From an uncultured virus (IMG/VR IMGVR_UViG_3300025154_000083) (Duplodnaviria; Heunggongvirae; Uroviricota; Caudoviricetes): a stretch of 64,000 nt of DNA. Position 1 is the stretch's first letter; every line of letters starts with the position of its first letter. Of this stretch, positions 495 to 56,901 are shown in pieces. The stretch spans positions 1 through 64,000 of the IMG/VR virus record IMGVR_UViG_3300025154_000083; one strand, given 5' to 3'. The notes beneath the pieces are model-generated. The model saw only the letters and a list, made by a program, of their open reading frames with translations, searched no databases and had not been told where the DNA came from. Position numbers and translations under genes: made by a program.

Positions 495-541
495 GCCTTG
501 AAGGAGAGGAGGCAGCAACCCGTGCCCCTCCCATTCAAGGC
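495..541 (+). terminator. Inverted repeat after capsid gene, probable terminator
   Basis: GCCTTGAAGGAGAGG...CCCTCCCATTCAAGGC followed by a T-rich tract. Confidence 0.5.
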
Positions 542-606
542 ATACTTCATTTTTCATCATTTTCACCATCCTACCATCCAACTACCTTTAAGGAGGTATA
601 TCAATC

Positions 607-1101
607 ATGTCCAATTACGATGTAAGAGCAACCGCCTTGAATGGGCTTGGAGGCACTTCCTTTAGTGTCCCGGCCTACGGCAATTCCTTGCGCTCGGTGG
701 CGTACAAGAGATTCAGCTTTGCGGACCTCGTTACGGCCCCGGTGCAAAATGATGTTGTCGTTTTCATGACCATCCAGGCCAAGAGCCGGGTTCATAGCGC
801 AAACCTCGTCGTGGTGACCCCGGAAGGAGAAGCGTCCACCATTCACATTGGAGACTATTCCGACCTCGTGGGCTCAGCCGTAGATGCTGATGGCTGGCTG
901 AAAGCCGTCTCCATCAATGGCGTGGCCGGAACTGGTGGTGGTACGGGCGGAAATACGGAAGCCTACGGAGCGGCAGGCGGGAAGTTTTATGCCGCCGAAG
1001 CCTATATGGCCATCACCTGTCCCGACAACCTCACGTACAATACGGCAGTCGTGGATATCTGGATTGACATCACCAAGTATTACGACGAGGAAGGCGATTA
1101 A
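607..1101 (+). CDS. Putative capsid decoration/cement protein
   Basis: 164 aa, strong RBS AAGGAGG, directly after the capsid gene, beta-rich. Confidence 0.55.
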   Translation: MSNYDVRATALNGLGGTSFSVPAYGNSLRSVAYKRFSFADLVTAPVQNDVVVFMTIQAKSRVHSANLVVVTPEGEASTIHIGDYSDLVGSAVDADGWLKAVSINGVAGTGGGTGGNTEAYGAAGGKFYAAEAYMAITCPDNLTYNTAVVDIWIDITKYYDEEGD

Positions 1102-1274
1102 GATTCAGCATTTCAGGACATGACGAAGCATTGGCCTGGAAGGGGAGATGGCAGGCCCCACCTAAACGTGGCCACTTTTCTTCCAGGCATTCATCACATT
1201 CACCGTCATCACTACCATTTCTACCACCCCACATCGAAGCGTAAAATGCGGGAGAAAGGCAGGACAGCACAACC

Positions 1275-1946
1275 ATGAAGTCGAAACCCATGAAGCCGAA
1301 GCCGAGAAACAAGCCACTCTTTTTGCAGCAAAAAACCACCGGGAGAGTTTTCCCGTACACCGCGGAGCTCGAACAATACCGAACCGACATGGTTCCGTTT
1401 TGGGGAACCCAGGAAGAGGCGAATGCAGCAAATGAGCGGATCCGGCTGGACAGGGCCAGGAAGAGAAATGCCGCGGCCGTCGGGGTTGGGCTCACTCAGC
1501 CGGTCACTCAGTCCGCAGATCCTGCCCCGCCTGTTGAAATGTCTCCCCCCTTCGCGGACCTCTTGCCGGCCGGGGCACTCGGGCCTCCCGAGGCAATACC
1601 TCCTTTATCCTCGAAGGGCGGGCTCCTTTCTTCCGGGGTCATCGTGGAGACTGATGAACAATCACCTCCAGTGATGCTTGCCAAGGGTGATTTTCTTTTG
1701 GAGCAACAGGCACTGGATGATGTAGATTTCGCGGAGCAAGTCACCTCTTCCAAACGAGGCATGGAATACCTGAAAACCATCGAAGGCGATATGTCAAAGC
1801 TCCGCGAGTACGGCCGGGAGAATTTCAACGTGAAGTTTCCCCCGAGCACGACCATGGATGTGATTTTCAAGGAGCTTGTTCTTATGGAGGCCGCAGGTCC
1901 CATGGAAACCATCGAGCTTGACGGCCCCGTTGACCCGCAGGAATAA
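1275..1946 (+). CDS. Hypothetical protein
   Basis: 223-aa ORF with RBS AGGA, co-oriented in the structural operon. Confidence 0.7.
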   Translation: MKSKPMKPKPRNKPLFLQQKTTGRVFPYTAELEQYRTDMVPFWGTQEEANAANERIRLDRARKRNAAAVGVGLTQPVTQSADPAPPVEMSPPFADLLPAGALGPPEAIPPLSSKGGLLSSGVIVETDEQSPPVMLAKGDFLLEQQALDDVDFAEQVTSSKRGMEYLKTIEGDMSKLREYGRENFNVKFPPSTTMDVIFKELVLMEAAGPMETIELDGPVDPQE

Positions 1947-2675: not shown

Positions 2676-2751
2676 GACCAGTGGTGTGGGGCTAGTGGTG
2701 TAGAGAAAGGCCAGCGGTGTGATGACGGGAATGAAAACAGAGATAGGTGCA

Positions 2752-5700
2752 ATGATGACGATGAAAATGAAAAGCTCAACTCCAAGAATCCTTTCCTTTG
2801 TTCTGGTGGCCGCATTTCTGTTGCCTTCTTTCTGTCTTGCTCAGACATCCACGACGGCCGGCCCTGGCAGGATAACTCCGAACACCACCATTGTTCGAAC
2901 GTTAGGTGAGCTGACTGCGGCAACCACGGATGCCAACTACGGAATATTGACTGGGAAGAGTTTCACTCTTACCGACAGCATGGAGATCCCCGTAACGAAG
3001 GTTTTCTCGCAAGCCCCCGGTGCTGTCATAGATACGAATGGGCTCTTGCTCACCATCCATAACGACGGAGAACATCCACCGAACCAGCAGCGATTCGCTA
3101 CAGGGAGTGAAGTTTCCTTTCCTGATGGCTCCACCGTGTACTCGGGATGGTTTGTTTCCTTGGTGGAAGCCGTGGATGCGCTGGGGCTTTCGCCGAATGT
3201 GAAGTTGGTGCAGAGCGAAGCTGAGACGCTTGGTGGTCCGGTGGTTATCCCTTCTGGGATGACGTTCACTGTTCTTCCCGGCGCAATACTCACCACATCG
3301 GCAGCAAATACTCTCACCTTCGCGGCGGGCTCCGTAATTGAAGACAATGGCGGGCAGATGTTCAGCAGCCTGCCCGGCGAAGTTTTGATGCCATCTGCCT
3401 TGGAAGTTCGCCCTGAGTGGTGGGGAGCTATAGTAACATACGACACTACGACCTATACCTATGCGGCCGCTAACCAAAACGCCATTTTTTGTGCGTACAA
3501 GGCACTGTCAAATACTACAGGAGCTTATTTCATAGGTGCATCGAAGGTCAAGTTCAAGGCCGGAAATTATGTGGTTGATGATGGATTCGATTTGACCGAC
3601 GCCAGCTTGAGCGGAGGGTACAGGACCATAATCTTTGAAGGCGAGGCGTGGAGGACTACATACATCACGCTGTATAATGATTCGGCTACATACCTTTTCA
3701 AGGACGACGATACCGGTAACCTTGGCCGAAGTTACGAGTTCAGGAACTTCCAATTCAAGAACACCATTGCATATTCTGCCGGGGTATCTTGGCATCCGGC
3801 GACAGCCATTCAGTTGAAGCATTGCATCAACAGCAAGTTTGAGAATCTGTATTTCAGGGAATTCACCGAAGGTATGAATCTTGACGCGAATGTTGTTGCT
3901 CCCAACGTTTACAGTTCAATCTTCAATCAGGTTATCAACTGCAAGGCCGTGTACTGTAAGCGTGGATTCACGCTCGGAAACAATAGTAACAACTGGGTCA
4001 TTTCAGACTCTGGCGCCTATGGCTGTTACTACACGGCTACTCCACTCGATGGATGGGGATGGTCGCTCTACAAGTCAAAGGGTGTGAGTTTTCTTGGGGC
4101 CAATGTCGAAGCGGGCGGAGCTTCCCCAGGATTCATCATCACGGCATCATCCGGAGTGACAATCAGCGGCGGAGACATCGAGACGTTCAGTGGTGCTCGT
4201 TCCATCTTGGTCAGAGGTGATCCTGATGGTGACTTGGCTGATATCCGGGACTGGTCTACCGGGATAGTGATCTCTGGTGTAAAGTTTTGGAATGCCCTGG
4301 GGGTTGAGGTTCGCGATGGAGTAAAAGGACTAACTCTCACAGGAAATGCGTGGACCAATAGTTACCCGGCGTCAGGACTCGCCCCGAATCCGGACTACTC
4401 TTTCCGCGTATTAAGTACCAGTAGCCCTAAATACATTCAAGGAATAGAGTACGACGACTCAAACGCATGGCATCTAGGGATAGCTCCCACGGCTCATTTG
4501 ACGGTGGGCATGAATCACGCTGTCCGCTACAACGGTCAGTCCTGGAAGTCGGCGGCCAACGCGCCCAACACGGCTTATGGTACGTGGAAGCAGGGAACTA
4601 GGGTGATGTGGACCGTCAATCCTGCGTTTTACTGGACCGTGAAAGAGTCTGGGACGCTCGGAACACTCAATACGAGCTTAACTACGGCTACCGGAACAAA
4701 TGGAGCCACATCGCTGGTACTCAGTTCGGCTACGGACGCATTTCCAGGCATGGTCGTGGATCTCACGATGGACGATGCCTCGACGCATACGGCTACCATT
4801 GGGACGTGCAACTATGACACGCTGGCTTGTTCGGTGTACCCGGCCCTTGATGCCAATATCACTGCGGGAGCAGTCGCCTATCATGCTCCCGTTTTCGTGC
4901 TCGAGGGCGAGGACAACACTTCTCAGTCCTTGGCCTATGCAACGCCTCGGTCGATTGATCTTTCTCTCGGCGGTGTGGTCCAGGTAGGAGAATTGACTGG
5001 GGACATAGAACTATCCAACCCAACGAACGGGCTAGTGGGAACCAGGTTTATTGTAGTTCTGTATGCTGATGCGACTCCGCGCAGCATCACCTACGGAACG
5101 GCATATAGGGCCGGGGCTCCGTCGAGTATTGCGGCGAGTCAGTATCTCGCCCTTGAATTCATGCAAGCGGCAACGGGGGCCGGTGGGATTCGATTCATGG
5201 GTGTTCCGCTGGTTTCTAACCTTACGGACTTCGACAATCAAACCGCTTGGCGAGTGTTCTATTCCAACGGTAGCGGAGACACGACGGAATTGGCTCTTGG
5301 TGCTGACGGGACATATCTCCGTAGCAACGGGGCCGCCGCCGCTCCTACGTTTGATGTCCCGGCGTGGTTGACCGCAGCAAGCGTGAATGACGTCAACACA
5401 GGAACCAGCACGACGACAGCCGTAACCCCCGACGCCCTGGCTGGCAGCAACATCGGGACGCGCATGGTTCACCTTCTCGTGACCGCCGACGATGCCGCAC
5501 TGGTCATTGCCGATACGAGCGGGATGTTCCGAGTTCCTGCCGAGATGAACGGGATGGTTCTGGTGTCCGCTGCGGTTCAAGTCGGGACGGTCTCCAGCGC
5601 GAACAACCCGACTTTCAAGGTTGAGAAATTCAGACTTTCAGCGGCAGCCACAAGAGATGCAGCGGTACAAATGCTTTCCACCAATCTTACCATTGACGCT

Positions 5701-5862
5701 ACGGAATACGACAGCAAGGATGCCACCACGCCCGCTGTGATCTCTGCCGTGGCCGGGGCCGCAACCGTTGCGACCGGAGACACGATCACGGCGTCATGCG
5801 TAACCGAAGCGGGGACCGGGACAGAAGGTGGAGCCGTGACGTTGGGATTCAGGTTGCCGTAA
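2752..5862 (+). CDS. Tail spike/fiber with pectin-lyase-like beta-helix and signal-peptide-like N-terminus
   Basis: VRPEWWGA neck motif followed by Asn/Gly-rich beta-helix rungs. N-terminus KSSTPRILSFVLVAAFLLPSFCLA-Q. Start chosen from the RBS. Confidence 0.7.
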   Translation: MMTMKMKSSTPRILSFVLVAAFLLPSFCLAQTSTTAGPGRITPNTTIVRTLGELTAATTDANYGILTGKSFTLTDSMEIPVTKVFSQAPGAVIDTNGLLLTIHNDGEHPPNQQRFATGSEVSFPDGSTVYSGWFVSLVEAVDALGLSPNVKLVQSEAETLGGPVVIPSGMTFTVLPGAILTTSAANTLTFAAGSVIEDNGGQMFSSLPGEVLMPSALEVRPEWWGAIVTYDTTTYTYAAANQNAIFCAYKALSNTTGAYFIGASKVKFKAGNYVVDDGFDLTDASLSGGYRTIIFEGEAWRTTYITLYNDSATYLFKDDDTGNLGRSYEFRNFQFKNTIAYSAGVSWHPATAIQLKHCINSKFENLYFREFTEGMNLDANVVAPNVYSSIFNQVINCKAVYCKRGFTLGNNSNNWVISDSGAYGCYYTATPLDGWGWSLYKSKGVSFLGANVEAGGASPGFIITASSGVTISGGDIETFSGARSILVRGDPDGDLADIRDWSTGIVISGVKFWNALGVEVRDGVKGLTLTGNAWTNSYPASGLAPNPDYSFRVLSTSSPKYIQGIEYDDSNAWHLGIAPTAHLTVGMNHAVRYNGQSWKSAANAPNTAYGTWKQGTRVMWTVNPAFYWTVKESGTLGTLNTSLTTATGTNGATSLVLSSATDAFPGMVVDLTMDDASTHTATIGTCNYDTLACSVYPALDANITAGAVAYHAPVFVLEGEDNTSQSLAYATPRSIDLSLGGVVQVGELTGDIELSNPTNGLVGTRFIVVLYADATPRSITYGTAYRAGAPSSIAASQYLALEFMQAATGAGGIRFMGVPLVSNLTDFDNQTAWRVFYSNGSGDTTELALGADGTYLRSNGAAAAPTFDVPAWLTAASVNDVNTGTSTTTAVTPDALAGSNIGTRMVHLLVTADDAALVIADTSGMFRVPAEMNGMVLVSAAVQVGTVSSANNPTFKVEKFRLSAAATRDAAVQMLSTNLTIDATEYDSKDATTPAVISAVAGAATVATGDTITASCVTEAGTGTEGGAVTLGFRLP

Positions 5863-5873
5863 GGGAGAAGATA

Positions 5874-7166
5874 ATGATCATGTTTCTGAGAATAGCATTT
5901 TGGATATTGCTTCTCGCCTTGCCGGTTCATGCCGCCGACGTTGTGGGCGAATTCGCCGAGACCGAGAATCTTGGCGGCGGACTCCGCAAGATGACGATCC
6001 ACTCTGCGCCCATAGCCTACGAGGAAGCCGGGAAGTGGAATCGGATCGAGACGAATTGGAAAGACTCGGGCGACGGTGCAAGACCACATGCCGTAACGAA
6101 GTCGAAGCTCATGACGACCATCGCCGACGACGGAATGAGGCGGATTCATCCTACGAGGGATCTGAATAAGTACATAGAAATCGGATGTCCCTACGTCAAG
6201 CCTGCTGCCAATTGGGTGAAAGTCCCGTGGTCGGGGGCGCAACGAAGCGGGAACCGGATGACCTGGACCAGGCCCGAAGCGGACATGAGTATTACCCATG
6301 CCGGACACTATCTGAAACTGGACATTGAGCTCAAGGGAGGCTACGTGCCCCCAACTGGGAAGTTCGCCTTCCCAGTTGGTATTCAGGGATTGACTCGTTC
6401 AGGTAACCAGATCCTCGACGGCGAGAAAGTCGTGATGGTGCTACGAAGGCCCGTGGCCTATGACGCCGCCAATCCGGTAGACGTGAGGGAGATCCAGTCG
6501 CAGTTTGTGAGTGTTGATGGTCAGAGTTACATCTTGTTTCTCTTGCCGGATCTTGCGGGGATGTCGAGGCCGGTGGTTGATCCTACCTTCACCTTACAGC
6601 CCGACAATTCCACATTGCATGAAGCGATGTTCCGCGATTCCGATGTTTCTAGCAACTACCAAGGAGGCATTCAGGCCGGAGAGATTAATGCCGGATCTGG
6701 AGCCGCTAGAAGTGCAATAAAACTTGATCTTTCTGGTGTTCCTAAAAGCATTAAGATAGTGTCATCGTCATTGAAACTTACGGTTTCGGGTGACTATTCT
6801 AGCAATGCCCGGACATTGAGGTTGTTTCGCCTAAAAAGAGTAGTCGTATTTAATCAGGTGACATGGACCGTATATTCCACTGCAAATAACTGGCAAACAG
6901 CAGGTGGTTTCGGTGCTAACGATTGTGAGCAAACAGACATTGGAACTGCGTCAGTGACGGCGACTCAGGCTGTCGGCAGCGTAGTCATTATCAATATCAC
7001 TCCGAATACTACGGGCGGCATGGATTTAGGAAACGGGTGGCTATTGAAGATGGATACAGAGACGGATGATCAATACATTTTCTATGCTTCGGGTGATGCC
7101 ACGCCCACGAATCGCCCCAAGCTGGAGATCACATACCGGCTACTCAATGCGGTCATTATGTTTTAA
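5874..7166 (+). CDS. DNRLRE/CBM96-like domain protein with signal peptide
   Basis: MIMFLRIAFWILLLALPVHA-A at the start. C-terminal RSAIKLDLSG..IVSSSLKL...F.ASGDA.PTNRPKLEITY. Confidence 0.65.
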   Translation: MIMFLRIAFWILLLALPVHAADVVGEFAETENLGGGLRKMTIHSAPIAYEEAGKWNRIETNWKDSGDGARPHAVTKSKLMTTIADDGMRRIHPTRDLNKYIEIGCPYVKPAANWVKVPWSGAQRSGNRMTWTRPEADMSITHAGHYLKLDIELKGGYVPPTGKFAFPVGIQGLTRSGNQILDGEKVVMVLRRPVAYDAANPVDVREIQSQFVSVDGQSYILFLLPDLAGMSRPVVDPTFTLQPDNSTLHEAMFRDSDVSSNYQGGIQAGEINAGSGAARSAIKLDLSGVPKSIKIVSSSLKLTVSGDYSSNARTLRLFRLKRVVVFNQVTWTVYSTANNWQTAGGFGANDCEQTDIGTASVTATQAVGSVVIINITPNTTGGMDLGNGWLLKMDTETDDQYIFYASGDATPTNRPKLEITYRLLNAVIMF

Positions 7167-7179
7167 GAAAGGATATTCC

Positions 7180-7899
7180 ATGCCAATTCTTTCATATTCA
7201 TGGCCGGTGACTCACTGGATGTTACCGGCAGACTGCACCGAGCTTGAGATGGATTCTCCTGGGATCATCTGCTCTCGCATCGCTCATGCCACGCCCGAGC
7301 AGAAGCAGCACTTTCGCGACAAAGGAAAGATCATCCTGCACACAGTCCCAGAAGTATCGACCCTCCTGGCTACTGACGGCGCACTCCTGGCAGCTATGAT
7401 CGAGGCCACGGAGGGGCATCCCGTGGACGGTCTGAGCCTGGATGAATTCTGCCTTGGAAAGTATACTCCTGTTCAACGAACGGCCATCAAGACCGCAATC
7501 ACGGCCTACCGGGAGAGATATCCTCACATGCTGCTCCACGCCTGGGCGGGATATTGCCTGCATGACTTCACGGATGCGCCGACGGTGAAATTGCTTTACA
7601 ACCTGTTCGATTGGGTGAGCCCTGAACTCTACATTAAGGAGGGCGATCCAATCACCATGCAGGTATTTTTGCGGCGATACAGAACACAGGTGGACTTGTC
7701 GCGCACTATGGTCGGGCTTGCAGTCCACAAAGATTACAGGATTACCGAGACCGGCTGGCTGCCGCACTTGGCCGCTCAGATCAGGCGAGTGACGGCTCTC
7801 GGGTGCGCGGGTGTGGCTATGTGGGCGCCAGTGCATTTGCGGGATAGCGGAGAGCGAAAAGCGGTGGATGTTTTGTTGTCTGGCGCAGTGGATAAATAG
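7180..7899 (+). CDS. Hypothetical protein, possible glycoside-hydrolase-like TIM barrel
   Basis: RBS AAAGGA. Alternating alpha/beta pattern with DGLSLDEF and GVAMWA motifs; the fold is an inference. Confidence 0.55.
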   Translation: MPILSYSWPVTHWMLPADCTELEMDSPGIICSRIAHATPEQKQHFRDKGKIILHTVPEVSTLLATDGALLAAMIEATEGHPVDGLSLDEFCLGKYTPVQRTAIKTAITAYRERYPHMLLHAWAGYCLHDFTDAPTVKLLYNLFDWVSPELYIKEGDPITMQVFLRRYRTQVDLSRTMVGLAVHKDYRITETGWLPHLAAQIRRVTALGCAGVAMWAPVHLRDSGERKAVDVLLSGAVDK

Positions 7900-7929
7900 A
7901 AATAGAGGAAGAGAGGGGAAGCACCTACT

Positions 7930-8526
7930 ATGGCATACAACGATTTCCGAGCATACTTTACAAGTTCCGGTGTCCCCCTAGAGGGACTGTCTCCAACAAT
8001 CACCCTGCGAGATATCTCCGACGGCTCCGTGGTCGTGAATGCGGCGGCAATGACCGAGAAGGGATCGGGGTGGTACGTCTACACCTATGCCGGATACGAC
8101 CTCTCCAAGGAATACGTCGGCTATTGCTACGCCGGCACGGATGCGGCAGATGAAGCATACAAGCCAATCGGCACCGGGGACGTAGCTCTCGCGGCTCAAA
8201 CTCTACTGACGACAGCCGTGAGTGTGAGTGCGACAGCCGGGACAGTTGCCGCCAAGCTCAACCTTGCGGCGACCGGAGGAAACCTCTCCGGGTCCGGCGC
8301 TATCTCCTGGCCGTACACCATCACGAACTCTGTTTCCGGGGCTCCCATCGCAGACGTGGATGTATGGATTTCAACGGACGAGGCCGGGAACAACGTAGTC
8401 GCATCCGGAAGAACCGACCAAACCGGGACAATTACATTCAACCTGGACGCGGGAACGGTCTATGTGTGGCGGCAGAAGAGCGGGTACAACTTCGCTCCGA
8501 ATCCCGATACCGAGGTTGTTTCTTAG
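7930..8526 (+). CDS. Putative virion protein with Ig-like/prealbumin-like beta domains
   Basis: 198 aa. Motif GAPIADVDVWI...SGRTDQTGTITFNLDAGTVYV. Confidence 0.6.
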   Translation: MAYNDFRAYFTSSGVPLEGLSPTITLRDISDGSVVVNAAAMTEKGSGWYVYTYAGYDLSKEYVGYCYAGTDAADEAYKPIGTGDVALAAQTLLTTAVSVSATAGTVAAKLNLAATGGNLSGSGAISWPYTITNSVSGAPIADVDVWISTDEAGNNVVASGRTDQTGTITFNLDAGTVYVWRQKSGYNFAPNPDTEVVS

Positions 8527-8569
8527 AATGGGAGGATGTGAACCAGTGCAGATGGAGGATAGTATATAA

Positions 8570-9247
8570 ATGGGCGGAACAGGGTCGGGAACATCAGTAA
8601 CTCCGATAGGGTCGGTATCCTTCGATCTCTTCCTTCCGGAAGTCTTGCCGCACGTCCCTGGGTGTCCGGTGGTTATAGCTCTAAATGCCATAAGGAACGC
8701 ATGTCGTGAGTTTTGCCGCATGTCAACGATATGGCGTGACTGGCTCGGCCCCCTCACCTCGGTCGTGGATCAGCCGACGTACACGCTTCTCGTGGATGCC
8801 GGAACGGAGGTCGTGGTTCCAACGAAGGTAAGGTATGACGGGAACGACATAGATGCCGCGGCTAGAGAGGTCCTCGATCATCTCCTTCCGAACTGGGAAT
8901 CAGCGGAGAGCGGGACACCCACGCAATACCTTGTCGAGACTCAAGGAACCATCAGGCTTTATGTTCCTCCCGACGAAGCGACGGCAGACATTATCGAGGT
9001 TGAGGCCGCACTCAAGCCGTCGGCTGTTGCCACGGCGGTTGGAGACGTCGTTTACAATGACTGGCTAGAAACCATCGCAGCAGGAGCCATCTCACGCCTC
9101 ATGAAAATCCCAAAGGCAGACTGGAGCGACATCAAGCTTGCCGTGTACTACGAAACGATCTTTCAAGACGGGGTAGCCATGGCGAGACATACCGTCGATG
9201 TGGGCCATGTCAAGCGATCCAGGCAGGCCAAGATGATGCGGTGGTAA
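8570..9247 (+). CDS. Phage adaptor/tail tubular protein
   Basis: FLPEVLPHVPGCP...NAIRNACREFC and IAAGAISRLMKIP..WSD motifs of podoviral tail proteins. Confidence 0.7.
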   Translation: MGGTGSGTSVTPIGSVSFDLFLPEVLPHVPGCPVVIALNAIRNACREFCRMSTIWRDWLGPLTSVVDQPTYTLLVDAGTEVVVPTKVRYDGNDIDAAAREVLDHLLPNWESAESGTPTQYLVETQGTIRLYVPPDEATADIIEVEAALKPSAVATAVGDVVYNDWLETIAAGAISRLMKIPKADWSDIKLAVYYETIFQDGVAMARHTVDVGHVKRSRQAKMMRW

Positions 9248-9339
9248 CGAAAACCATGATCCATCATTTTTAATTTCACCATCAACACCATCACCACAAC
9301 CACTACTGCCCCTCCCTTCAAAGCAAAGGACAACATTCA

Positions 9340-9900
9340 ATGCCAAAGACACGATTCAAAAACTTTGCGGTATCCACCCTTCTGAACGCCATAACGAGAT
9401 CGGCGGCAAGCCTTCAATGCCAGTCCGGAGACGCAAGTAAGTTCTATGCCATAGGCTCGGGCGAAATCATGTGGATCACCCTGGAAGACGAGGATGGCAA
9501 CAGGGAGATCATGAAATGCACCGCAAGGACGAGCAACACCTTTACGGTTTCCAGGGGCCAGCAGGGCACGGAAGCCAGGGCATGGGCGGCCGGCGTATTG
9601 ATCGAAGGCAGGCTCACGGCTTCCGACCTCGACACGATCCTGCAGGGCCTTGAAGTGGAAACGAAGTCCTGGACGCCTGGAGCCATTGCAAGCGGTGCCG
9701 AGCTCGGAGTTGATATTGCAGTAGCAGAGGCCGAGCTTGGTGATTTCGTGATCGCATCGGCAAGCGTCGATCTTCAGGGCATGAAGCCGAGCTACTACAT
9801 AGAATCGGCCAACACCGCTCATTACATTCTGCGGAACGACACCGGGGCGCCCATTACCCTTGGGACATTCACCATCTATGTTCGGGTGATCAAGAAGTAG
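9340..9900 (+). CDS. Short tail-fiber attachment-domain protein
   Basis: NREIMKCTART..TFTVSRGQQGTEARAW.AG..IEGRLTA. Paralogous to the N-terminus of the 32677 ORF. Confidence 0.7.
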   Translation: MPKTRFKNFAVSTLLNAITRSAASLQCQSGDASKFYAIGSGEIMWITLEDEDGNREIMKCTARTSNTFTVSRGQQGTEARAWAAGVLIEGRLTASDLDTILQGLEVETKSWTPGAIASGAELGVDIAVAEAELGDFVIASASVDLQGMKPSYYIESANTAHYILRNDTGAPITLGTFTIYVRVIKK

Positions 9901-46355: not shown

Positions 46356-46381
46356 CGGTTAAGAAGGAAGAATTTGATGCG

Positions 46382-46444
46382 GCCTTGAAGGGATGGGAGG
46401 GCTTGCGTTGGTGGCGTAAAAAAGCAAGCCCTTCCCTTCAAGGC
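46382..46444. terminator. Long inverted repeat between convergent operons
   Basis: GCCTTGAAGGGA(TGGG)AGGGCTTGC ... GCAAGCCCTTCCCTTCAAGGC. Confidence 0.6.
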
Positions 46445-46501
46445 ATTCCACGGATCATTGTAGCACTCTCAAGTTGCCAGCTTCGGCTCCACCACACAGG
46501 G

Positions 46502-46885: not shown

Positions 46886-46908
46886 TCTTCCAGCTCCTGT
46901 CCCAAGTG

Positions 46909-46998
46909 GCCTAACATTGGGGCTCAGGCGCGGCGGCCAAGGACTCTGAACCAACGTCTCGGGCTTCCTCCGCCGTCGCCTGCAGCCCTGGGTTATGC
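46909..46998 (-). mobile_element. attC: Integron attC site (90 bp)
   Basis: GCATAAC-CCAGG-GCTGCAGG...CCTGAGC-CCCAAT-GTTAGGC. Confidence 0.85.
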
Positions 46999-47120
46999 CA
47001 TAAATACACCCCCTCACCACCGCCACGCATGGGCCTAATAGCCCCGTGTCTCCCCGAGTGCCCTGGCTCCAACTCACAGGCCACGTGCGGGAACGTCTCG
47101 TTGACAGCTCCACACTTCAT
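46911..47120 (-). CDS. Cassette gene, 69 aa, translated through its attC
   Basis: RBS GGAGG. MKCGAVNETFPHVACELEPGHSGRH...; stop TAG lies in R'. Confidence 0.6.
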   Translation of the reverse strand: MKCGAVNETFPHVACELEPGHSGRHGAIRPMRGGGEGVYLWHNPGLQATAEEARDVGSESLAAAPEPQC

Positions 47121-47137
47121 CACCTCCCCCTTTCGCC

Positions 47138-47230
47138 GCATAACATTGGGGCTGAGCCGAGCGGGCCGTAGTACCACGGACTTCCGTAGCACCACGCGTG
47201 GCCCGCTTCGGCTCCAGCCCTGGGTTAGGC
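47138..47230 (-). mobile_element. attC: Integron attC site (93 bp)
   Basis: GCCTAAC-CCAGG-GCTGGAGC...GCTCAGC-CCCAAT-GTTATGC. Confidence 0.85.
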
Positions 47231-47233
47231 CAT

Positions 47234-47410
47234 TTACTCCGTGATATTAATCCCATCCGAAAACTCGAATTGCGACGGATATATGCCGTATTCTTTCCTG
47301 GCCGCCTCGTTCAAAGCTTTCATTGCCTCCGTATGCTCGCATCCAGTCTCATCTACTTCGAATTCCGCCTCGACCAAGAGATGGGCATAGCCCCACGCTT
47401 TCATTTTCAT
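47234..47410 (-). CDS. Cassette gene, 58 aa acidic protein (absent from ORF track)
   Basis: RBS GAGGAG. MKMKAWGYAHLLVEAEFEVDETGCEHTEAMKALNEAARKEYGIYPSQFEFSDGINITE. Confidence 0.65.
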   Translation of the reverse strand: MKMKAWGYAHLLVEAEFEVDETGCEHTEAMKALNEAARKEYGIYPSQFEFSDGINITE

Positions 47411-47431
47411 TCCGTCTCCTCGGGCCTCGCG

Positions 47432-47524
47432 GCCTAACGTGGCGATAACCCGCGCCGGCCTTAACGGGTTTCCGTAGCACGACTCACGCGCGTGGCCGGC
47501 GTCGGGTTCATTGCTGGGTTAGAC
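47432..47524 (-). mobile_element. attC: Integron attC site (93 bp)
   Basis: GTCTAAC-CCAGC-AATGAACC...GGTTATC-GCCAC-GTTAGGC. Confidence 0.9.
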
Positions 47525-47667
47525 CCCTTTGGCACCCAAGCGTTGGGTGCGGTTGTTCCGCACTTGCGGCACCTCAATGTGGTGCGCGTCACGATAACCT
47601 TTCCGCCGCAGGCGCAGCACGAGATACCTCTGTCGCCCGCCGGGAAACTCACTGTTACCATCACCAC
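47461..47667 (-). CDS. Cassette gene, small zinc-ribbon protein
   Basis: CCACGG...CRKCG with RBS GAGGAGG. The ORF runs into its attC. Confidence 0.6.
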   Translation of the reverse strand: MVMVTVSFPAGDRGISCCACGGKVIVTRTTLRCRKCGTTAPNAWVPKGSNPAMNPTPATRVSRATETR

Positions 47668-47676
47668 CTCCTCGCC

Positions 47677-47784
47677 GTCTAACGCTGCGCATCAGCGGCA
47701 CCGATCACGCGGGCCGAGGACTCGAAGAGACGCAACTGAATTGCCCCCGCGTGGTCGGTGTCCGGCTGCATGCGCTTGTTAGAT
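47677..47784 (-). mobile_element. attC: Integron attC site (108 bp)
   Basis: ATCTAAC-AAGCG-CATGCAGC...GCTGATG-CGCAGC-GTTAGAC. Confidence 0.9.
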
Positions 47785-48530
47785 GATTTGAATCCACGGT
47801 ACCATGCGTCCAGGTATGCTTTGGGTGTGGGCCAGCGAGTCTTGTCTTCGCCAGCCTTGTTCCAGAACCACCATGTGACCGCATGCTCAAAAACCCGATA
47901 ACATCCGGGCCACCTTTGCCTGTGCTGCTTCACCTTACCCATCCCGACCGAGACGATTAAAGGGCACACCATTCAGCCGATCCGGTCAAAGCCCTGGTCA
48001 TACAGTTCGCAAAATGGCAGGCCAAGACCTTCGATGAACTCCCAGACGTGCCATTCGTGCCACTCGAAAATGGGAGAATACTGCCATTTGCCGCGAAACC
48101 TTGAAATCCTCCCACGCTCTTTCCTCCCTGGAGACTCTTCGGCCCGTATGCCAACCAGTTTGTGTTTCAAGGGGATAGCTTTCGTTGGGTCTTTCTTTAG
48201 TACGTCGCAACACCAGCGCTTATTAAAAACGGGAGGAAACTTAGCTCTGATGCCTTCCCACATAGACATGACGGGACGGTAAATACGAGTATCAGGGTAT
48301 GTCTTGAGCCCGAACTTGATCGCCTCAGGTGGATCAATGCCGGTGAAGCTGTGGACCGGAAAGCATTTAACTCCAGCCATTTTCACCAACTCCATGAGCA
48401 CAACTGAGTCTTTGCCGAAACTATTGCAAACCATATACCCCTCAGATGGTTCATGAGCCTGCATAAAACCCACGGACTCAGCGACCACGTTTTGCAATGG
48501 TACTACCGACATTTGCTGTGCTCTTGGCAT
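47679..48530 (-). CDS. PAPS/APS-reductase-family protein, 283 aa if the UGA at 47973-47975 is recoded (candidate selenoprotein)
   Basis: SFGKDS PP-loop, WCCDVLKK, GIRAEES, then RIG*MVCP where the family has R.GC..CP. The two track ORFs abut in frame. Confidence 0.8.
47933..47963 (-). promoter_or_regulatory. Candidate bacterial SECIS element
   Basis: CCUUUA-A-UCGUCUC-GGUC-GGGAUGG-G-UAAGG. The GGUC loop begins 24 nt after the UGA. Confidence 0.65.
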
Positions 48531-48548
48531 TGACTTTACTCTCGCGCG

Positions 48549-48641
48549 GCCTAACTTTGGCGATAACCAGCGGGCACCCTAGCACCGCCGACTGCATAAA
48601 ACCAAGGCGTGGTACCCGTCTGGTTCATTACTGGGTTAGGC
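48549..48641 (-). mobile_element. attC: Integron attC site (93 bp)
   Basis: GCCTAAC-CCAGT-AATGAACC-AGACGGG...CCCGCT-GGTTATC-GCCAAA-GTTAGGC with two extrahelical bases. Confidence 0.9.
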
Positions 48642-48884
48642 TTCCGCAAACGCGAAAACCTTAATGGCCTTTCCGTCAAAATCAACCGTGACCGGGTTGA
48701 GCCCAAAGAGCCCCCCGCCGGCGTAATTGCATGGCCCGCCCGTTTTATCGAAAATCTGCTTATCAGAATTCATCGCTCGTCCCACACAGGAGAAAGCCGC
48801 TTCCCGGTCTGATGCCCCGGCATCCTTCCAATCCTTAACGCTGGCAACGTAGCCACAGGAGGGGCACACAAACTTCCAGCCCAT
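48636..48884 (-). CDS. Cassette gene, VVA0879-like Cys protein, probably N-terminally truncated
   Basis: WKFVCPSCG...FSCVGR...CNYAGGGLFGL. Stop in R''. No clear RBS, and an in-frame stop lies shortly upstream. Confidence 0.55.
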   Translation of the reverse strand: MGWKFVCPSCGYVASVKDWKDAGASDREAAFSCVGRAMNSDKQIFDKTGGPCNYAGGGLFGLNPVTVDFDGKAIKVFAFAEA

Positions 48885-48930
48885 TGGATCTTTCCCGAAT
48901 CGCTGGGTTGTCTACTCACCGAGCCCAACA

Positions 48931-49692
48931 TCACACTTCAATATGACGCCACGTCATACCAACAGCTATGTGAGAAAGATTGGATTTTTTCATATTAAAC
49001 ATCTTTTGTATAATCTTTCTATCAATATTGGCGTTAAGCAGTTTCTTTATGAGCCAAACTTCACCATCTTTCCATTTGGACTTGAAGTGACGCTCTCCAT
49101 AATCATCTGTTTTGTATTTAACTGGCGAAACTTCATCATAAGATATGTCAATGTCTCCCCACAACTCATCTCTTCCTATTCTAGCCGTATGATGAGGAGT
49201 TACTTTGAACATCTTGCCTATTAGTATTGACGGTATTCCAGAAAGCCATAGCTTCTTAATAAGCCACACTTCACCATCTTTTAGTTTACTCCTTCCGCTT
49301 TTCTCTCCACGCAGACCATGCTTTAACTCAGTTTTATATGAATGGATTACATTTTCTTGATGAGTTACCCATTCAAGATTAAAATCAAAATTGTTATTCT
49401 TATTTCCATCTTTATGATTAGCATTTTTGCCACTGGGTCGCTTGCATACAAATGCTTCCAAAACCAAAACATGAATTCTGCAACATTTTACCTTGCCATT
49501 CTGACACAGGGCAACTTGCAAATAGCCCCACTGGTTTGGACATGCAGAAAGTATTATTGGTAATTTCCTTTTTCTCGATCTCACCCTTCCAAAATTCGAT
49601 ACATCATAATCCTGGCACCACCACACTGGAATCCAGGTCTCTTTATTGACCTCTGAGCCTTCTTGCAAGATTTGTAAATCTATTGCTTGCAT
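48931..49692 (-). CDS. NUMOD4/HNH homing endonuclease
   Basis: YDVSNFGRVRS, IHVLVLEAF, NHKDGNK.NN...NLEWVTHQEN and a duplicated KDGEVWLIKKL. AT-rich. Confidence 0.9.
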   Translation of the reverse strand: MQAIDLQILQEGSEVNKETWIPVWWCQDYDVSNFGRVRSRKRKLPIILSACPNQWGYLQVALCQNGKVKCCRIHVLVLEAFVCKRPSGKNANHKDGNKNNNFDFNLEWVTHQENVIHSYKTELKHGLRGEKSGRSKLKDGEVWLIKKLWLSGIPSILIGKMFKVTPHHTARIGRDELWGDIDISYDEVSPVKYKTDDYGERHFKSKWKDGEVWLIKKLLNANIDRKIIQKMFNMKKSNLSHIAVGMTWRHIEV

Positions 49693-51919
49693 CTGTCGTC
49701 CTTATGCAAAGGTTTATTGCCTTTTGTTGGCCTACCAAGACAACATACCTTTTAGCACGAGTGATGGCAGTATACAAGAGATTTCTCCGGAGTTGAATAT
49801 AATTTGTGGTGTGTACCGGGATCACAACAACGGGAAATTCACTCCCTTGTGATCGGTGAACAGTAAGCGCATAAGCCATCTGTAGTTGCTCAAAATCCTT
49901 GGAAGCATACTCGACTTCCCGATCATCGATCATGACCACAACGGCACTCGCATCCCCTCCAAGCACAATCCCCATGTCCCCGTTGAACACCATCTTCTTG
50001 TAATCGTTCCTCGTCTGGATGACCCTATCCCCTGTCAAAAAAGGCGTCCCGCCTATAGCCACCCCTTCGACGTTGATCACGGGCCTCAATCGCCTATTCA
50101 GTTCTATCGTCCCGGCCGGCCCCTTCTTCATGGGACACAACACCTGGATATCCTTCAGGTCAAACCCATAGTGCGCGGAGAATTTCACGCACACCTTCTC
50201 TATCATGGGGGCGATGCCGTGCTTGTCCTCCTCGGTCACAAAGAAGAAATCCGAGTCGCCATCATTTTTGAGCTCAACCTTCTCGCCGCGATTGATTCGC
50301 TGAGCGTTCCGGTTGATGTAACTCTTCGCGGCCTGGCGATGAAGGGTGGTGAGATGCACTGTGGGGATTATCCACGATTCGATGATGTCTCCCAACACCC
50401 TCCCGGCACTCACCGACGGCAACTGGGCCGGGTCCCCAACGAGGATAAGCTGCGTCTTCTCCGGGTTGACCGCGGATAACAGGCTCGCCATGAGTTGCAC
50501 ATCCACCATGGAGGTCTCATCGATCACGAGCACGTCCACGTCGAGGGGGTTGTCCTGGTTGTGGCGGAATCCCACCTCGGGATGAAAGGCGAGCAGGCGG
50601 TGAATGGTCATGGCCGCACGACCGCCGGTTGCCTCGGACATGCGTTTGGCCGCCTTTCCCGTGGGGGCGGCCAGGGCAATATTCAAATCTCGACCCATGG
50701 CTCGGATGATGAAGTTGATCAAGTGGGTTTTGCCAACTCCGGGCCCACCCGCTAGAACCATGATTTTTGACGTCATGGCGAGGTCCAGGCCTCGAAGCTG
50801 GTCTTGGTCGAGGGAGTTGATTTCATCCGAGGAGAGCTCGCTTATCATGGCTGCATGGGGGGTTGAGACGAACTTTAGGAGGGACTGTGCCACGTCGATT
50901 TCAGCGGTCCACATTTCTGCCGTGTAGATGTAGGTGACGGGGGCGGGAGTGGTTGCATCGACTTTGCCTGCATCACCCTCGAAGGGAAGGGCTTCTTCCT
51001 TCAAGGCATCGCTCTTTTTCTGCGCCTCCATTCCCATCATTTCCCTCCCCGGCGTAAAATCCACCAGCTTCCCCGCGGCGATCATCTCGCTTAGCACCTC
51101 AACAACCTTCTCCTTCCCGGCCTCGAGGATCTCCACGGCGCGCTTGACCAGTTCCTCGAAGGGGAGACAGGTGTGCCCTTCTCTACCGGATGCTTCCTGC
51201 AGAACATACCTGATTCCGGCCGTCAGACGACGCCTGCTTTCCTTTTTTATCCCGGTGGACACGGCAATGGCGTCGGCTTTCTTGAAGCCTATCCCCCACA
51301 CATCGTCGGCCAGAAGGTACACGTTGGCCTCGATCTGCTTCTTGGCTTTCTCCTTGGTGCCGTAAGTGTCCATGAGGCGGTTCAGAAGGGAGGGCGTTAT
51401 CCCGTGGGTGCTGAAGTACACGTCAATCGTGCGATCCGACATGATGGAGATGTATTTCTCGTGGATCTCCTGGGCTCGGGCCGGGGTGATGCCATTGACC
51501 TCGGAGAGCTTCCCGGGAGAGTGCTCAATCACTTCGAAGAGGGCTGGGCCGAAGGCCTCCACGAGACGACGCGCAAGAGTAGGTCCGACCCAGCGCAGGC
51601 GGTCGAGGTAGTGGATGATTCCCATGGTATCCCTGGGAAGCTCGCGGGTGGCGTTGGAGAATTTGAATTGCCGGCCGTACCCCGTCTCTTCGTACTTCCC
51701 TTCCAGGGTTACGCAATCCCCGACCTCGAAGTCCAGCGGAAGAACACCGGTAGCCTTTTCTGGAATGCCACTGATCCGGATAATTCTCCAACCTCCCGTG
51801 AAGGGGCGGCTCATGTCCTTTATGGTCCCGGATATGGTTTCTACGGCGTTGATGGTGGTGGGAGCGGAAGATTGAGATGCGTTGCAAGGTGATGGCGTCT
51901 TCCTGGCCAGCTTAGACAT
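49643..51919 (-). CDS. recD2: RecD2-like SF1B helicase
   Basis: HhH repeats, GGPGVGKT, APTGKAA, IDETSM, VGDPAQLPSV, TVHRSQGSEF and LYTAITRA. Confidence 0.95.
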   Translation of the reverse strand: MSKLARKTPSPCNASQSSAPTTINAVETISGTIKDMSRPFTGGWRIIRISGIPEKATGVLPLDFEVGDCVTLEGKYEETGYGRQFKFSNATRELPRDTMGIIHYLDRLRWVGPTLARRLVEAFGPALFEVIEHSPGKLSEVNGITPARAQEIHEKYISIMSDRTIDVYFSTHGITPSLLNRLMDTYGTKEKAKKQIEANVYLLADDVWGIGFKKADAIAVSTGIKKESRRRLTAGIRYVLQEASGREGHTCLPFEELVKRAVEILEAGKEKVVEVLSEMIAAGKLVDFTPGREMMGMEAQKKSDALKEEALPFEGDAGKVDATTPAPVTYIYTAEMWTAEIDVAQSLLKFVSTPHAAMISELSSDEINSLDQDQLRGLDLAMTSKIMVLAGGPGVGKTHLINFIIRAMGRDLNIALAAPTGKAAKRMSEATGGRAAMTIHRLLAFHPEVGFRHNQDNPLDVDVLVIDETSMVDVQLMASLLSAVNPEKTQLILVGDPAQLPSVSAGRVLGDIIESWIIPTVHLTTLHRQAAKSYINRNAQRINRGEKVELKNDGDSDFFFVTEEDKHGIAPMIEKVCVKFSAHYGFDLKDIQVLCPMKKGPAGTIELNRRLRPVINVEGVAIGGTPFLTGDRVIQTRNDYKKMVFNGDMGIVLGGDASAVVVMIDDREVEYASKDFEQLQMAYALTVHRSQGSEFPVVVIPVHTTNYIQLRRNLLYTAITRAKRYVVLVGQQKAINLCIRTTDASNRFTNLARRLRGQ

Positions 51920-54677: not shown

Positions 54678-54682
54678 TTTGA

Positions 54683-55060
54683 TTATTCTCCTTTCTCGGA
54701 ATTCTTTTTCGTACCATCTTTCTCGCGCTCCAGCACGGCCCATCCCTGCTTTTCAAAAGTCAAAACATACCCGTCCAGGACGGTGATGATTTTATGCGGA
54801 TCAAGCTGAAATGTGATCTTCTTGTCTTCTCCGCCTGTCGCGCCCATCGCCGTGAAGCACGCACCAAAACCGGCACCGTATGCTTCATGTCGAGATGACT
54901 CCATGGCTGCGGCATGTTTTGACGTGAGGGTGGAAAGTTCCTCCTCGTGGTCCGCCATGATCATCCATGTGGAGAGACTCATCGACACAAAGAATGACAA
55001 CGCTGAAATCCAAAGCAAGTAAATCGGAACTGGACTCATGAAAAGCGTTTTTACTTTCAT
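54683..55060 (-). CDS. Membrane-anchored hypothetical protein
   Basis: N-terminal hydrophobic helix, RBS AAAGGAG. Confidence 0.65.
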   Translation of the reverse strand: MKVKTLFMSPVPIYLLWISALSFFVSMSLSTWMIMADHEEELSTLTSKHAAAMESSRHEAYGAGFGACFTAMGATGGEDKKITFQLDPHKIITVLDGYVLTFEKQGWAVLEREKDGTKKNSEKGE

Positions 55061-55065
55061 TGCGG

Positions 55066-56901
55066 CTACTCTCCTTTCTCGGAATCAGCAGTCTTCCGGC
55101 TCAACCTCGGGGGAAGCTCGGAGCCTTGAAGGGAAGGGGGTGTTTTCTTGTCCGTTGAACCCAGAAAAGCAGGGGACGACAGATCATTATCAGACGAAGT
55201 TTTCAGCGATGCGGCAACCATTTCTTCGCTGAATGGATCGCTGGCCCCCTCTTCCCATCCGCCTTCTTCCTCGTCAGTCTTTCCATTCCCGGCCCCACCT
55301 TCCTCCCCGCCCTTCTTTTTGCTTCCACCCTTCCCCCGCTTCTTACGCTTATCCTCCAGCGCCTCCGGCTTTTCCGGCCTTCCCTCGACCGGCACGCCAT
55401 TCACGGCGACCACTTCCCCCTCCACCAAGTGCCATCCGTTCTCTTCCGGCTGCTCGGCGACCTTCGTCACAATGATATGTGCCCCGATCTTCGCGGCCCA
55501 CTCCCGGAGCACTCGCTGGCTATCCAGGTCCAGCTCGGCCCACGCCTTGTCGATGGTCAGCAATCCAATGTCAGGGTGGGACGCCATGCACACGGCGCAA
55601 CCCACGTGGATCTGCTCGGCGCCGGATGCCAGGGAGAGAGGATGACCATTGTACGTGACGACACCCTCGTCAAAGCCCAGCCCGAGAACCGGCATGCCGG
55701 CGGCCTCGATCAGCTCACCCTTGTAGTTTTTGAGTGCTGCCATGCGGTCGGTGTAGGATTGCGAAACGGCGCGCTGCGTTTCGAGGGAGGTCGTCGACGC
55801 TTTCCATGAAGTAATGGCGTTGAAGGTCTTGTTGGTGGCGTCGGCCGTGGATATGCGGGTGTCGACGTCCTGGAAGAGTGGAGTGAGGTCTTCGAGGGTG
55901 GTGAGGTGCTGTTCCATGGCCGCATGCTCATTTAGCATATTGGTAACTTCGATACGATGCGCTTCTTGTTCTGTTTTCATGACATCCAACGCTCGTTGTA
56001 GATCTGCAATTTGCTCTGCGATGTCTTGCATACTAAATTCACGCTCATTAATTCTGCGTTCTTGCGCTATAATCAATGTCTGGTAGTCTCTGGCCTTCTT
56101 CCGCTCATCGTCCTGCGCCGTCCTCCTCTCTTCCAGCGCCTTCCGCTCTTCAAACAAATCCTTGACCTTGACCTCCTCGACGCTCTCCCACCCTTCAGGC
56201 GGCGTAAAGCTGGCCTTCACCCCTTCAAGGCGCTTCACTTCGGCATTCACTTCCTTCCTGAGCTCGAAGAGCTTCTTGTGTGCCCGGTCGAAGGCTCCCA
56301 CGGAATCACGCAGGTGCTCGGCCTTGACGCCGGTAAATCCGGATCGCTTCATGAATTCATCGGGATCCGGGCGAAAGGTGATGAGGCGCTGGAGGGTCTC
56401 TATCTTCTCGGACTCACTCAGGCGGTTGAAGGCGATGGGGTCCTGGACGTTCTCACCGAGCCTTGAGGAGAGGAACTCCTGCGGCGACGGAGCGATGAAG
56501 CCGCCCTTGCCGATAATGGAAAGCGTGGTGGTATATCCTCCGGATGGAGATCCGTCTTTCCCTTCCTTGCGATTGATCACGCGCTTCACCAGATAATCCC
56601 CGAAGTCGATCAACCCCTCGGCCCGGTCGGTGCCGTCCCGGATGATGTCAGCGGAGATGTGTTTCTCGCCAAGCAGCATTCCCCACAGGCACTCGAGGAG
56701 GGAGCTTTTGCCTTGGCGGTTTTTGCCCGTGAGCAAGACTATGGGGTCGGAGGGATCGGGGCGGATGTCCACGACCTTGAGCTTCTTGAAGTTCTCGGCG
56801 TAGATCTGGACTACGCGGAGAGGGGTGGGGAGGGGCGCGGTGGTGGTGGTTGAAGCAGGATTGTCTTTCATTTCTTCATTGTCTTGTGTCTTATTTGGCA
56901 T
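55066..56901 (-). CDS. SMC/SbcC-like ABC ATPase
   Basis: ENFKKLK, Walker A GKNRQGKSS, coiled coil, signature ASGAEQ and Walker B LLTID. Confidence 0.85.
   Translation of the reverse strand: MPNKTQDNEEMKDNPASTTTTAPLPTPLRVVQIYAENFKKLKVVDIRPDPSDPIVLLTGKNRQGKSSLLECLWGMLLGEKHISADIIRDGTDRAEGLIDFGDYLVKRVINRKEGKDGSPSGGYTTTLSIIGKGGFIAPSPQEFLSSRLGENVQDPIAFNRLSESEKIETLQRLITFRPDPDEFMKRSGFTGVKAEHLRDSVGAFDRAHKKLFELRKEVNAEVKRLEGVKASFTPPEGWESVEEVKVKDLFEERKALEERRTAQDDERKKARDYQTLIIAQERRINEREFSMQDIAEQIADLQRALDVMKTEQEAHRIEVTNMLNEHAAMEQHLTTLEDLTPLFQDVDTRISTADATNKTFNAITSWKASTTSLETQRAVSQSYTDRMAALKNYKGELIEAAGMPVLGLGFDEGVVTYNGHPLSLASGAEQIHVGCAVCMASHPDIGLLTIDKAWAELDLDSQRVLREWAAKIGAHIIVTKVAEQPEENGWHLVEGEVVAVNGVPVEGRPEKPEALEDKRKKRGKGGSKKKGGEEGGAGNGKTDEEEGGWEEGASDPFSEEMVAASLKTSSDNDLSSPAFLGSTDKKTPPSLQGSELPPRLSRKTADSEKGE

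Follow-up and report, generated by a model that had tools for sequence, protein, structure and literature searches.

The window analyzed here (64,000 nucleotides, bases 1-64000 of the 67,213-bp virus record IMGVR_UViG_3300025154_000083, hereafter G000) derives from an uncultured member of the Caudoviricetes, and is strewn with a short DNA word, CCNNGAAGR-DDDDD (D being any base but C), which is the subject of this report. The genes of the window encode SU10-type adaptor and head proteins, an internal virion protein, a 4576-aa polyvalent protein, RecD2, a Rad50-like ATPase, a DnaQ-like exonuclease, MucR and a primase, and the phage appears to be a podovirus. An 89.4-kb record (G004), 99.9% identical to the window phage, adds the missing 22 kb with the portal, terminase and capsid genes, while a second lineage (G005) is 91% identical over 58 kb and reaches 95.7 kb with an overlapping metagenome contig. 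The source runs carrying the phage sequence are groundwater and soil metagenomes, and the four runs examined consist of assembled contigs from a G005-like strain. General scans of the phage proteins turned up no member of the RecT, Erf, Sak or Gam families, no integrase and no match to ParA. We infer a host in the class Syntrophobacteria, because the nearest named relatives of MucR belong to Syntrophobacteraceae and Desulfosoma, one capsid homolog carries the label Syntrophobacter fumaroxidans, and two of six attC-like elements in the window match genomes of this class at 86-88%. When positions 36000-55999 (20 kb) were compared with 122 genomes in search of CRISPR spacers, none of the matches listed was both perfect and spacer-like.

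The word was noticed as a highly iterated palindrome, CCTTSAAGG, in an earlier reading of the letters of the window (the original prediction). All 23 coordinates listed in that reading are exact matches, 17 of them inside our chosen set of open reading frames (ORFs). The chance expectation, put at less than one copy in that reading, is 0.98 in 100 dinucleotide shuffles (maximum 3). The sequences CCTTAAAGG and CCTTTAAGG occur once each in the window, and the counts of the 9-mer in G000, G004 and G005 are 25, 37 and 32, respectively. Correction for codon pairs, which had been proposed as a check, leaves the enrichment in place: the 17 coding copies compare to null means of 1.4-3.8 (synonymous, 2.5; codon-order, 1.4; dicodon-Markov, 3.8; protein-plus-dicodon, 3.6), and in none of the four nulls did any of the 300 replicates reach 17. 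For these shuffles we hand-picked 51 of the listed ORFs as the gene set and excluded the pentapeptide gene along with its neighbor. The polarity noted earlier is also real. When the exact sites are oriented on the G-centered strand, a G or T precedes and a C-free tail trails; in G004 the five nucleotides on the 3' side are free of C in 35 of 37 copies, compared to 9 of 37 on the opposite side. The palindrome as the unit, in contrast, had to be given up. The 9-mer is instead the top tier of the asymmetric 14-mer CCNNGAAGR-DDDDD, which 22 of the 23 exact copies fit.

This working definition, oriented on the G-centered strand, was reached by an expectation-maximization (EM) fit and a gapped-word scan, in which the two T positions proved loose; a wider EM model that drifted into codon periodicity was discarded. 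The window holds 98 copies between 496 and 63962 (41 on the plus and 57 on the minus strand), and the whole genomes hold 150 in G004 (69+/81-) and 147 in G005 (62+/85-), at a density of about one per 600 bp, or about 1.7 per kb. The preferred form has a G at -1 and mainly T or G at NN, the best version being GCCTTGAAGG followed by a G/A-rich tail. Within genes, 87 copies of the 14-mer stand against 14.2 in synonymous shuffles (largest, 23 among 100) and 8.3 in codon-order shuffles, with an excess in six of six frames and on both strands (51 sense and 36 antisense sites vs 9.6 and 4.5 expected; 5.3-fold and 8-fold). The gap between 14.2 and 8.3 suggests that the protein sequences, too, may have been nudged toward the 14-mer. 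The z-scores are post hoc, as the motif was defined on the same genomes; independent checks come from the spacing controls and from the tests of conservation. The controls CCNGAAG, CCNNNGAAG, GGNNGAAG and CCNNGAAC gave scant or zero excess (z 0 to 2.6), such that altering the gap length or the CC abolishes nearly all of it. In G004, any single substitution at a fixed position lowers the count from 150 to 4-29, and a C in the tail lowers it to 5-15. The base profile is flat past +16, and no hairpin covariation within the unit was seen in the 13 position pairs tested. Likenesses to three known elements, the sigma-32 -35 box, KOPS and lambda boxB, were dropped in view of the flat profile beyond +16, the degenerate NN, the lack of covariation and the lack of genome polarity. 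In the largely open-access literature searched we found no description of the word; the matches listed for CCTTGAAGG were unrelated, and the degenerate pattern was not searched as text.

Comparison of G004 with its 91%-identical relative reveals the selection on this word. Among the 104 alignable of the 150 sites, 84 are intact in the relative, compared to 60% for a generic mask; ten control patterns were kept at 44% to 82%, several of them with small counts. Substitutions amount to 22/624 in the core and 203/2145 in the flanks (p = 3e-7). At synonymous third positions, 12/199 changed in the core, compared to 2452/14972 (16%) in the rest of the genome (p = 2e-5) and 381/2493 in the nearby flanks (p = 1.5e-4). 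The tail and NN positions change near the background rate, the tail changes being mainly A/G. The silent core positions are conserved, and therefore selection acts on DNA. Indifferent to strand, frame and transcription and yet kept at silent sites, the word is read on DNA. Purifying selection thus acts at the DNA level on a word of 14-15 bp in a small phage clade, and we regard it as nearly certain that this is a real, selected DNA signal. Selection at silent positions also supports the earlier notion of a dispersed site for protein binding, modification or processing.

The widely defined word is spread at 1.5 per kb inside and 1.8 per kb between genes, with about 90% of the sites intragenic, while the exact core is about three times denser between genes than inside. 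Site orientation is not tied to the direction of transcription, and there is no link to start codons (22/150 sites have an ATG 14-27 nt downstream from their start, compared to 29/124 for the control). Four tail-fiber and accessory blocks, picked after the gaps had been seen, hold 11 sites in 19.7 kb, compared to 87 in 44.3 kb elsewhere. The putative tail and tail-fiber block on the plus strand (2719..9900) has 2 sites in 7.2 kb and none from 3326 to 9996, and the accessory region with the attC-like elements (42067..49692) has 6 in 7.6 kb and none from 46531 to 50119. The gene of the MucR family (41211..41936, plus strand) reaches the top gene density with 4 sites (5.5 per kb), its exact cores at 41524 and 41552 falling in the variable middle region.

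Head-to-head pairs had been reported as frequent. They do exist, with only a modest excess: 6 vs 3.7 expected in G004 (p = 0.16) and 9 vs 3.3 in G005 (p = 0.006), or, by matrix, 11 vs 4.3 and 16 vs 4.0. Among the four pairs that had been named, two exact cores are found in the window only at 46383/46435. The pair at 495..542 (plus strand), after the major capsid gene, joins the exact core at 496 to a one-mismatch partner in a strong hairpin with a T-rich tail (-36.8 kcal/mol, z -8.1). Both of its cores are exact in G005, and it has probably been co-opted as an intrinsic terminator. The pair of exact cores at 46382..46444 lies between converging ORFs and also folds strongly (z -4.7), making it a possible bidirectional terminator. 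Three intragenic pairs fold weakly. Convergent pairs inside genes include the tightest one (50977..51006), 21 bp from center to center in the RecD2 gene and with an equivalent 21-bp pair in G005, and two pairs of variant sites, one of 23 bp in a 770-aa ORF (16926..16957) and one of 21 bp in the polyvalent-protein gene (21304..21333). At the putative origin of replication the sites show no clear strand flip (40+/37- vs 29+/44-). At this locus, 62607-62976, directly after the primase gene, an AT-rich stretch is flanked by eight GGTAACAG iterons, some in one orientation and some in the other. It is likely a P4-like origin.

The 4576-aa polyvalent protein (18740..32470, plus strand), whose gene carries 29 sites, comprises InPase, ParB_N, adenine methyltransferase (MTase; with NPPF), Strawberry-notch helicase, ART-PolyVal and LPD38 domains. 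Its counterpart in the second lineage has 5663 aa (G005 38609-55600). The N-terminal, InPase and ART parts are common to both, whereas the MTase-helicase modules differ, being of the Strawberry-notch type in the window and Eco57I-like plus superfamily 2 (SF2) in G005. The word is also found inside the swapped module of G005, at lower density. An encoded ParB had been named as a possible binder. A ParB_N domain is indeed present in the polyvalent protein; it is short, it is the sole ParB-like sequence found, and the stretch has no tblastn match in the giant protein of G005.

Several other features of the genome are of note. The attC-like imperfect palindromes lie between short genes (36352-36442, 46911-46999, 47140-47230, 47434-47524, 47679-47783 and 48605-48650) and resemble the attC sites of integrons. 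As no integrase turned up in the proteins scanned, the phage may collect host gene cassettes. Accessory genes (44534-48530; G004 62072-64556) encode DUF1643, radical SAM, PAPS-reductase-like, nucleoside deoxyribosyltransferase-like and pyrimidine-dimer glycosylase proteins, several of them missing or divergent in G005. The gene at 38168-38608 matches PHROG 997, annotated under the label 'replication terminator'; it is 98.6% identical in G005 and adjoins PHROG 1029. A 15-bp tandem array of 22.8 copies (57412-57753) encodes pentapeptide repeats, in a gene with no match in the available G005 sequence. The palindromic 6-mers GGATCC, CCCGGG, GGGCCC, CGATCG, GTCGAC and AAGCTT are avoided in the window, which is probably restriction avoidance, and the non-palindromic GAGCTT is over-represented (93 vs 48) and is possibly a second word.

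Enrichment in relatives and candidate hosts had been proposed as a further check. It holds for the relative G005, with its 147 sites, and fails for the hosts tested. The word occurs at 87-297 per Mb in 122 of 122 Syntrophobacteria genomes, compared to about 1680 per Mb in the phage (6-19 times more), and a GG control is about equal to or commoner than the word in all five Syntrophobacteria genomes checked. The strict form and its control number 23 vs 27 and 46 vs 45 in two complete genomes and 45 vs 4 in the phage. No replichore skew is visible by eye among those 23 and 46 sites, which are few and lie on chromosomes with unmapped origins. The earlier comparison to a host Chi site is not supported, as the candidate host genomes tested lack the enrichment. 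Stricter patterns identified no enriched genome in overlapping phylum samples of 301 and 401 genomes, the maxima being 12 per Mb compared to about 300, and 10 per genome compared to 10 in 89 kb.

The same holds for other phages. In 80 loci of capsid relatives (44-51% identity) there are 63 sites in 916 kb, compared to 52 for the control. A metagenome scan for tailed inverted pairs returned six stretches, four from this phage clade and two with lone hairpins on contigs of bacteria that are not related. Among other loci of 3 kb or longer, 117 of 118 have at most 0.51 sites per kb and the remaining one has 3 sites in 3.2 kb. In a wider phage scan of 47 loci, 12 came from two known contigs (0.9-2.2 per kb); among the other 35, all but a 1.8-kb contig with 2 sites are at or below 0.5 per kb. 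The scans of the sequence collections thus brought up no dense carrier outside this clade. A pattern scan of genome contigs yielded at least 120 stretches, all of them scattered single hairpins among the matches listed. In one metagenome-assembled genome of a Syntrophus sp., the GCCTTGAAGG core forms the stem of two terminator-like hairpins (L057:1969-1993 and L076:1374-1398); this genome is not enriched (77 cores in 2.8 Mb). We also looked for relatives with iterated words of their own. Nothing convincing emerged from the 80 capsid-relative loci, in a search that was underpowered, because it failed to recover the word from a 22-kb segment of the phage as well, nor from contigs with helix-turn-helix (HTH) or primase homologs. 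Short repeats containing CTCTGYGG cluster around an HTH homolog in a Syntrophobacteria contig (G394:C28, about 34000-41200; L292, L293), and were set aside as they look like a host intergenic repeat family. Among the genomes searched, the word is phage-specific, the host itself having been assigned indirectly.

The lack of enrichment in candidate hosts argues for a reader encoded by the phage and common to both lineages, and we consider such a reader probable. A 14-mer without symmetry fits a monomer that has several reading heads, and the reader would bind double-stranded DNA as a monomer or a head-to-tail oligomer, as an asymmetric site needs. That it is a double-strand DNA binder that coats or marks the phage genome is our tentative proposal, to which we give somewhat less than an even chance. 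Our guess for the protein itself, a possible but doubtful one that draws on a structural model, is a clade-restricted T5 D5-like protein of 424 aa, encoded just past the end of the window (G000 64900-66171; D5-like PHROG match, E = 3e-9) by a gene with exact cores at 65179 and 65200. D5 and BldC coat DNA cooperatively, and we know of no iterated recognition word for D5. Of 3119 candidates in the protein database, only three clusters belong with this protein, one from the phage itself, one from the relative (97% identical in the part that would bind DNA) and P0426 (50%). Homologs of other phage proteins include P0248 (76%) and P0249 (50%) for the primase and P0123 (61%) for the capsid. The model has two three-helix modules of Myb/GcrA type and a BldC/Xis-type HTH module. 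Modules of the model superpose on the GcrA DNA-binding domain (Z 7.6, root-mean-square deviation (rmsd) 1.9, 46 aligned), on Myb repeats (Z 6.7) and on BldC (Z 5.6, rmsd 2.6, 52 aligned), and the C-terminal module is similar to BldC, to RacA and to 4lhf, a DNA-binding protein of phage P2. HTH/Myb look-alikes are found in the Atlas at 0.90-0.94; Foldseek gave no match at E 0.001 or better, and nothing informative came from PDB sequence searches with the HTH protein, the MTase-helicase region or the primase. According to PMC12630848, D5 is a transcription factor that acts in replication and in shutting off early genes. The D5-like protein would dock at the sites, coat the phage genome and organize it, and the coating might tune the phases of transcription. 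The density of sites, 6 to 19 times higher, could mark the phage off from host DNA. If each site confers a small benefit, sites would accumulate by point mutation in long-resident genes, with few of them in genes swapped recently; convergent pairs would have been put to use secondarily as terminators.

Several observations weigh against this assignment. The model is weak (mean predicted local distance difference test score of 55, from 3 sequences), and Z below 8 can reflect a common helical arrangement. Three Syntrophobacteria contigs with homologs of 29-37% identity have the word at 11, 5 and 5 copies, compared to 11, 5 and 4 for the control, and no convincing word of their own. The 97% identity is unexceptional, as about 15 other proteins are at least 97% identical. 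Other conserved HTH proteins are equally possible as the reader, namely the Cro-like protein (40302-40706), an HTH-like protein of 105 aa, and MucR. The word is known in two independent lineages only, too few for a correlation of gene with motif. The host placement is indirect, and binding by the D5-like protein is a prediction. The further idea that a phage protein reads the word at 6-19 times the host density, and thereby gives phage DNA shielding, condensation or preference in replication and packaging and leaves that of the host unprotected, we hold to be rather unlikely. Such a self-mark, if true, would do for a phage what self-recognition by Chi or by uptake sequences does elsewhere, from within the coding sequence of the phage itself. 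A confirmed reader would add a DNA-binding module for an asymmetric site of 14 bp, a new one, and could serve as a model for similar unexplained viral words, and with a position matrix and an expressible 424-aa candidate the proposal is testable without phage culture.

Alternatives to the coating or marking of the phage genome have to be weighed. An artefact of codon pairs or composition is scarcely conceivable. Common pairs, Leu-Lys and Leu-Glu among them, do fit the core; the reading is refuted by four rejected nulls for the 9-mer and two for the 14-mer, by the excess in six of six frames, by the conserved silent sites and by the near-equality of word and control in the capsid relatives (63 vs 52). 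A site of the stoperator or nick type is highly improbable. Both kinds are asymmetric, phage-specific and iterated (PMC4351075, PMC3517423, PMC11780129), and the present phage is apparently a podovirus, like phage tf and the relatives of tf. However, stoperators should follow transcription, and here sense (51) and antisense (36) sites both exceed expectation; nick motifs lie on one strand only, and here 69 are on the plus and 81 on the minus strand. Orientation largely refutes this reading. Chi-like end protection, in which a helicase-nuclease (host AddAB/RecBCD or a phage enzyme) halts at the word and the word-rich phage DNA survives and recombines, seems unlikely. A purine preference 3' of Chi is known, the site here is polar and present on both strands, and the phage encodes RecD2, the Rad50-like ATPase and the DnaQ-like exonuclease. 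With no RecT, Erf, Sak or Gam found in the scans, it might be grouped with the recombinase-lacking phages that over-represent host Chi (PMC3784561); those phages, however, match the host Chi density (0.2 per kb), whereas here the phage exceeds every Syntrophobacteria genome searched 6-19 times. The strict form equals its control in the two complete genomes, where no replichore skew is visible, and a phage with homologs of RecD2 (47%) and of the ATPase (39%) has just 7 sites in 21 kb.

The DnaG-like zinc-finger primase fused to a P-loop domain (59643..62561, plus strand) is a rival candidate reader, for which the word would be a priming signal, the core being read on the template and the C-free purine tail giving the primer. 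On each strand the sites are about 1.2 kb apart, a distance typical of Okazaki fragments, and the N-terminal part of the enzyme is common to both lineages (54-56%) with a swapped C-terminal domain, being joined to different P-loop domains in the window and in L250. A phage primase with an 8-nt site does exist, NrS-1 (PMC8718748), but it is an archaeo-eukaryotic primase (AEP) and not of the DnaG type, and its stronger site is just 3-4 nt. The primase is also among the least conserved proteins between two lineages that have an identical word, elements with primase homologs of 31-45% lack the word, and no clear strand flip is seen at the iteron-flanked putative origin; we consider priming quite unlikely. 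We regard as improbable that the word is the target of the DarB-like adenine methyltransferase-helicase of the polyvalent protein, injected as reader or writer for loading or methylation, with a GcrA-like domain possibly reading the mark. GcrA reads methylated adenine, the adenine MTase (NPPF) adjoins the helicase, and few positions vary less than the first A of GAAG (2 changes/125). Such dyads have been proposed to act on injected DNA (PMC5512222). Against this, G005 has a different MTase plus SF2 module, with no tblastn match over residues 1500-3141, yet has the same word. The swapping of the MTase-helicase module and of the primase C-terminal domain between lineages counts against those parts as the reader. 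Improbable to a similar degree is that the phage mirrors an iterated word, such as an uptake sequence, from a host that has not been sampled. The distribution does resemble that of the DNA uptake sequence (DUS) as presented in PMC3630211, with an asymmetric word in all frames, inverted pairs at terminators and depletion in accessory DNA, but there is no excess in the 122 class genomes or in the overlapping samples of 301 and 401 phylum genomes, four of the six stretches in the metagenome inverted-pair scan belong to this clade (the other two being single hairpins), and 117 of 118 other loci of at least 3 kb are at or below 0.51 per kb.

Comparison with known systems sets the word apart from most of them. 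HIP1 and parS, both invoked earlier, do not fit because the site is asymmetric. HIP1 is palindromic and abundant in its host, whereas this word has a one-sided tail (35/37 vs 9/37) and is at background in the 122 class genomes and 401 sampled phylum genomes of an indirectly placed host. Likewise, parS is palindromic, has few copies and comes with a ParA/ParB pair, compared to 150 copies and a short ParB_N domain here. Chi in phages lacking recombinases is likewise a polar over-represented word, but is equally dense in the host. REP/REPIN and boxB-like elements have covarying stems or pairs as a rule; here 0 of 13 position pairs tested covary, and convergent pairs number just 6 and 9 among 150 and 147 sites. 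A ribosome-binding or start-associated sequence is at odds with the lack of an excess of downstream start codons. Stoperators are bound by the phage repressor, and for the present word we know of no uptake receptor. In Cluster A mycobacteriophages the stoperators are asymmetric and present in many copies per genome (PMC4351075); they point with transcription, which this word does not, and no integrase turned up in the proteins scanned. The nick motifs of tf/LUZ24-like, phiKMV-like and T5 phages are asymmetric, phage-specific and iterated (PMC3517423, PMC11780129), but in the tf/LUZ24 group they number 8-14 on one strand, compared to 150 on both strands. The Cluster O mycobacteriophage repeat (PMC4351075) is an invariant palindrome of 17 bp with 34 copies, many of them intergenic, and a function given as unknown. 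It shares with our word a restriction to one clade, a dispersed and partly intragenic placement, a lack of orientation to transcription and presumed protein binding, and differs in that our word is asymmetric, degenerate, present in 150 copies per genome and about 90% intragenic. The DUS of Neisseriaceae has an asymmetric core on both strands, within genes, with inverted pairs at terminators and selection on DNA (PMC3630211). The present word is likewise asymmetric, on both strands, in all frames and in inverted pairs at terminators, albeit with a modest pair excess; it differs from this DUS and from the Pasteurellaceae uptake signal sequence (USS) in residing in a phage, in its gapped core and in its C-free tail. 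In competent bacteria the chromosome has a DUS or USS about once per kb, and no such genome was found for this word among those searched. The iterated phage words of the cited papers have few copies, keep to one strand or go with transcription, and those that are dense and independent of frame (DUS, Chi and HIP1) are owned by hosts; here a phage keeps about 1.7 per kb in its own genes, at a cost at silent sites, and its likely host does not share the word. The distribution of the word is most like that of an uptake sequence, and its phage specificity most like that of the Cluster O repeat or the stoperators.

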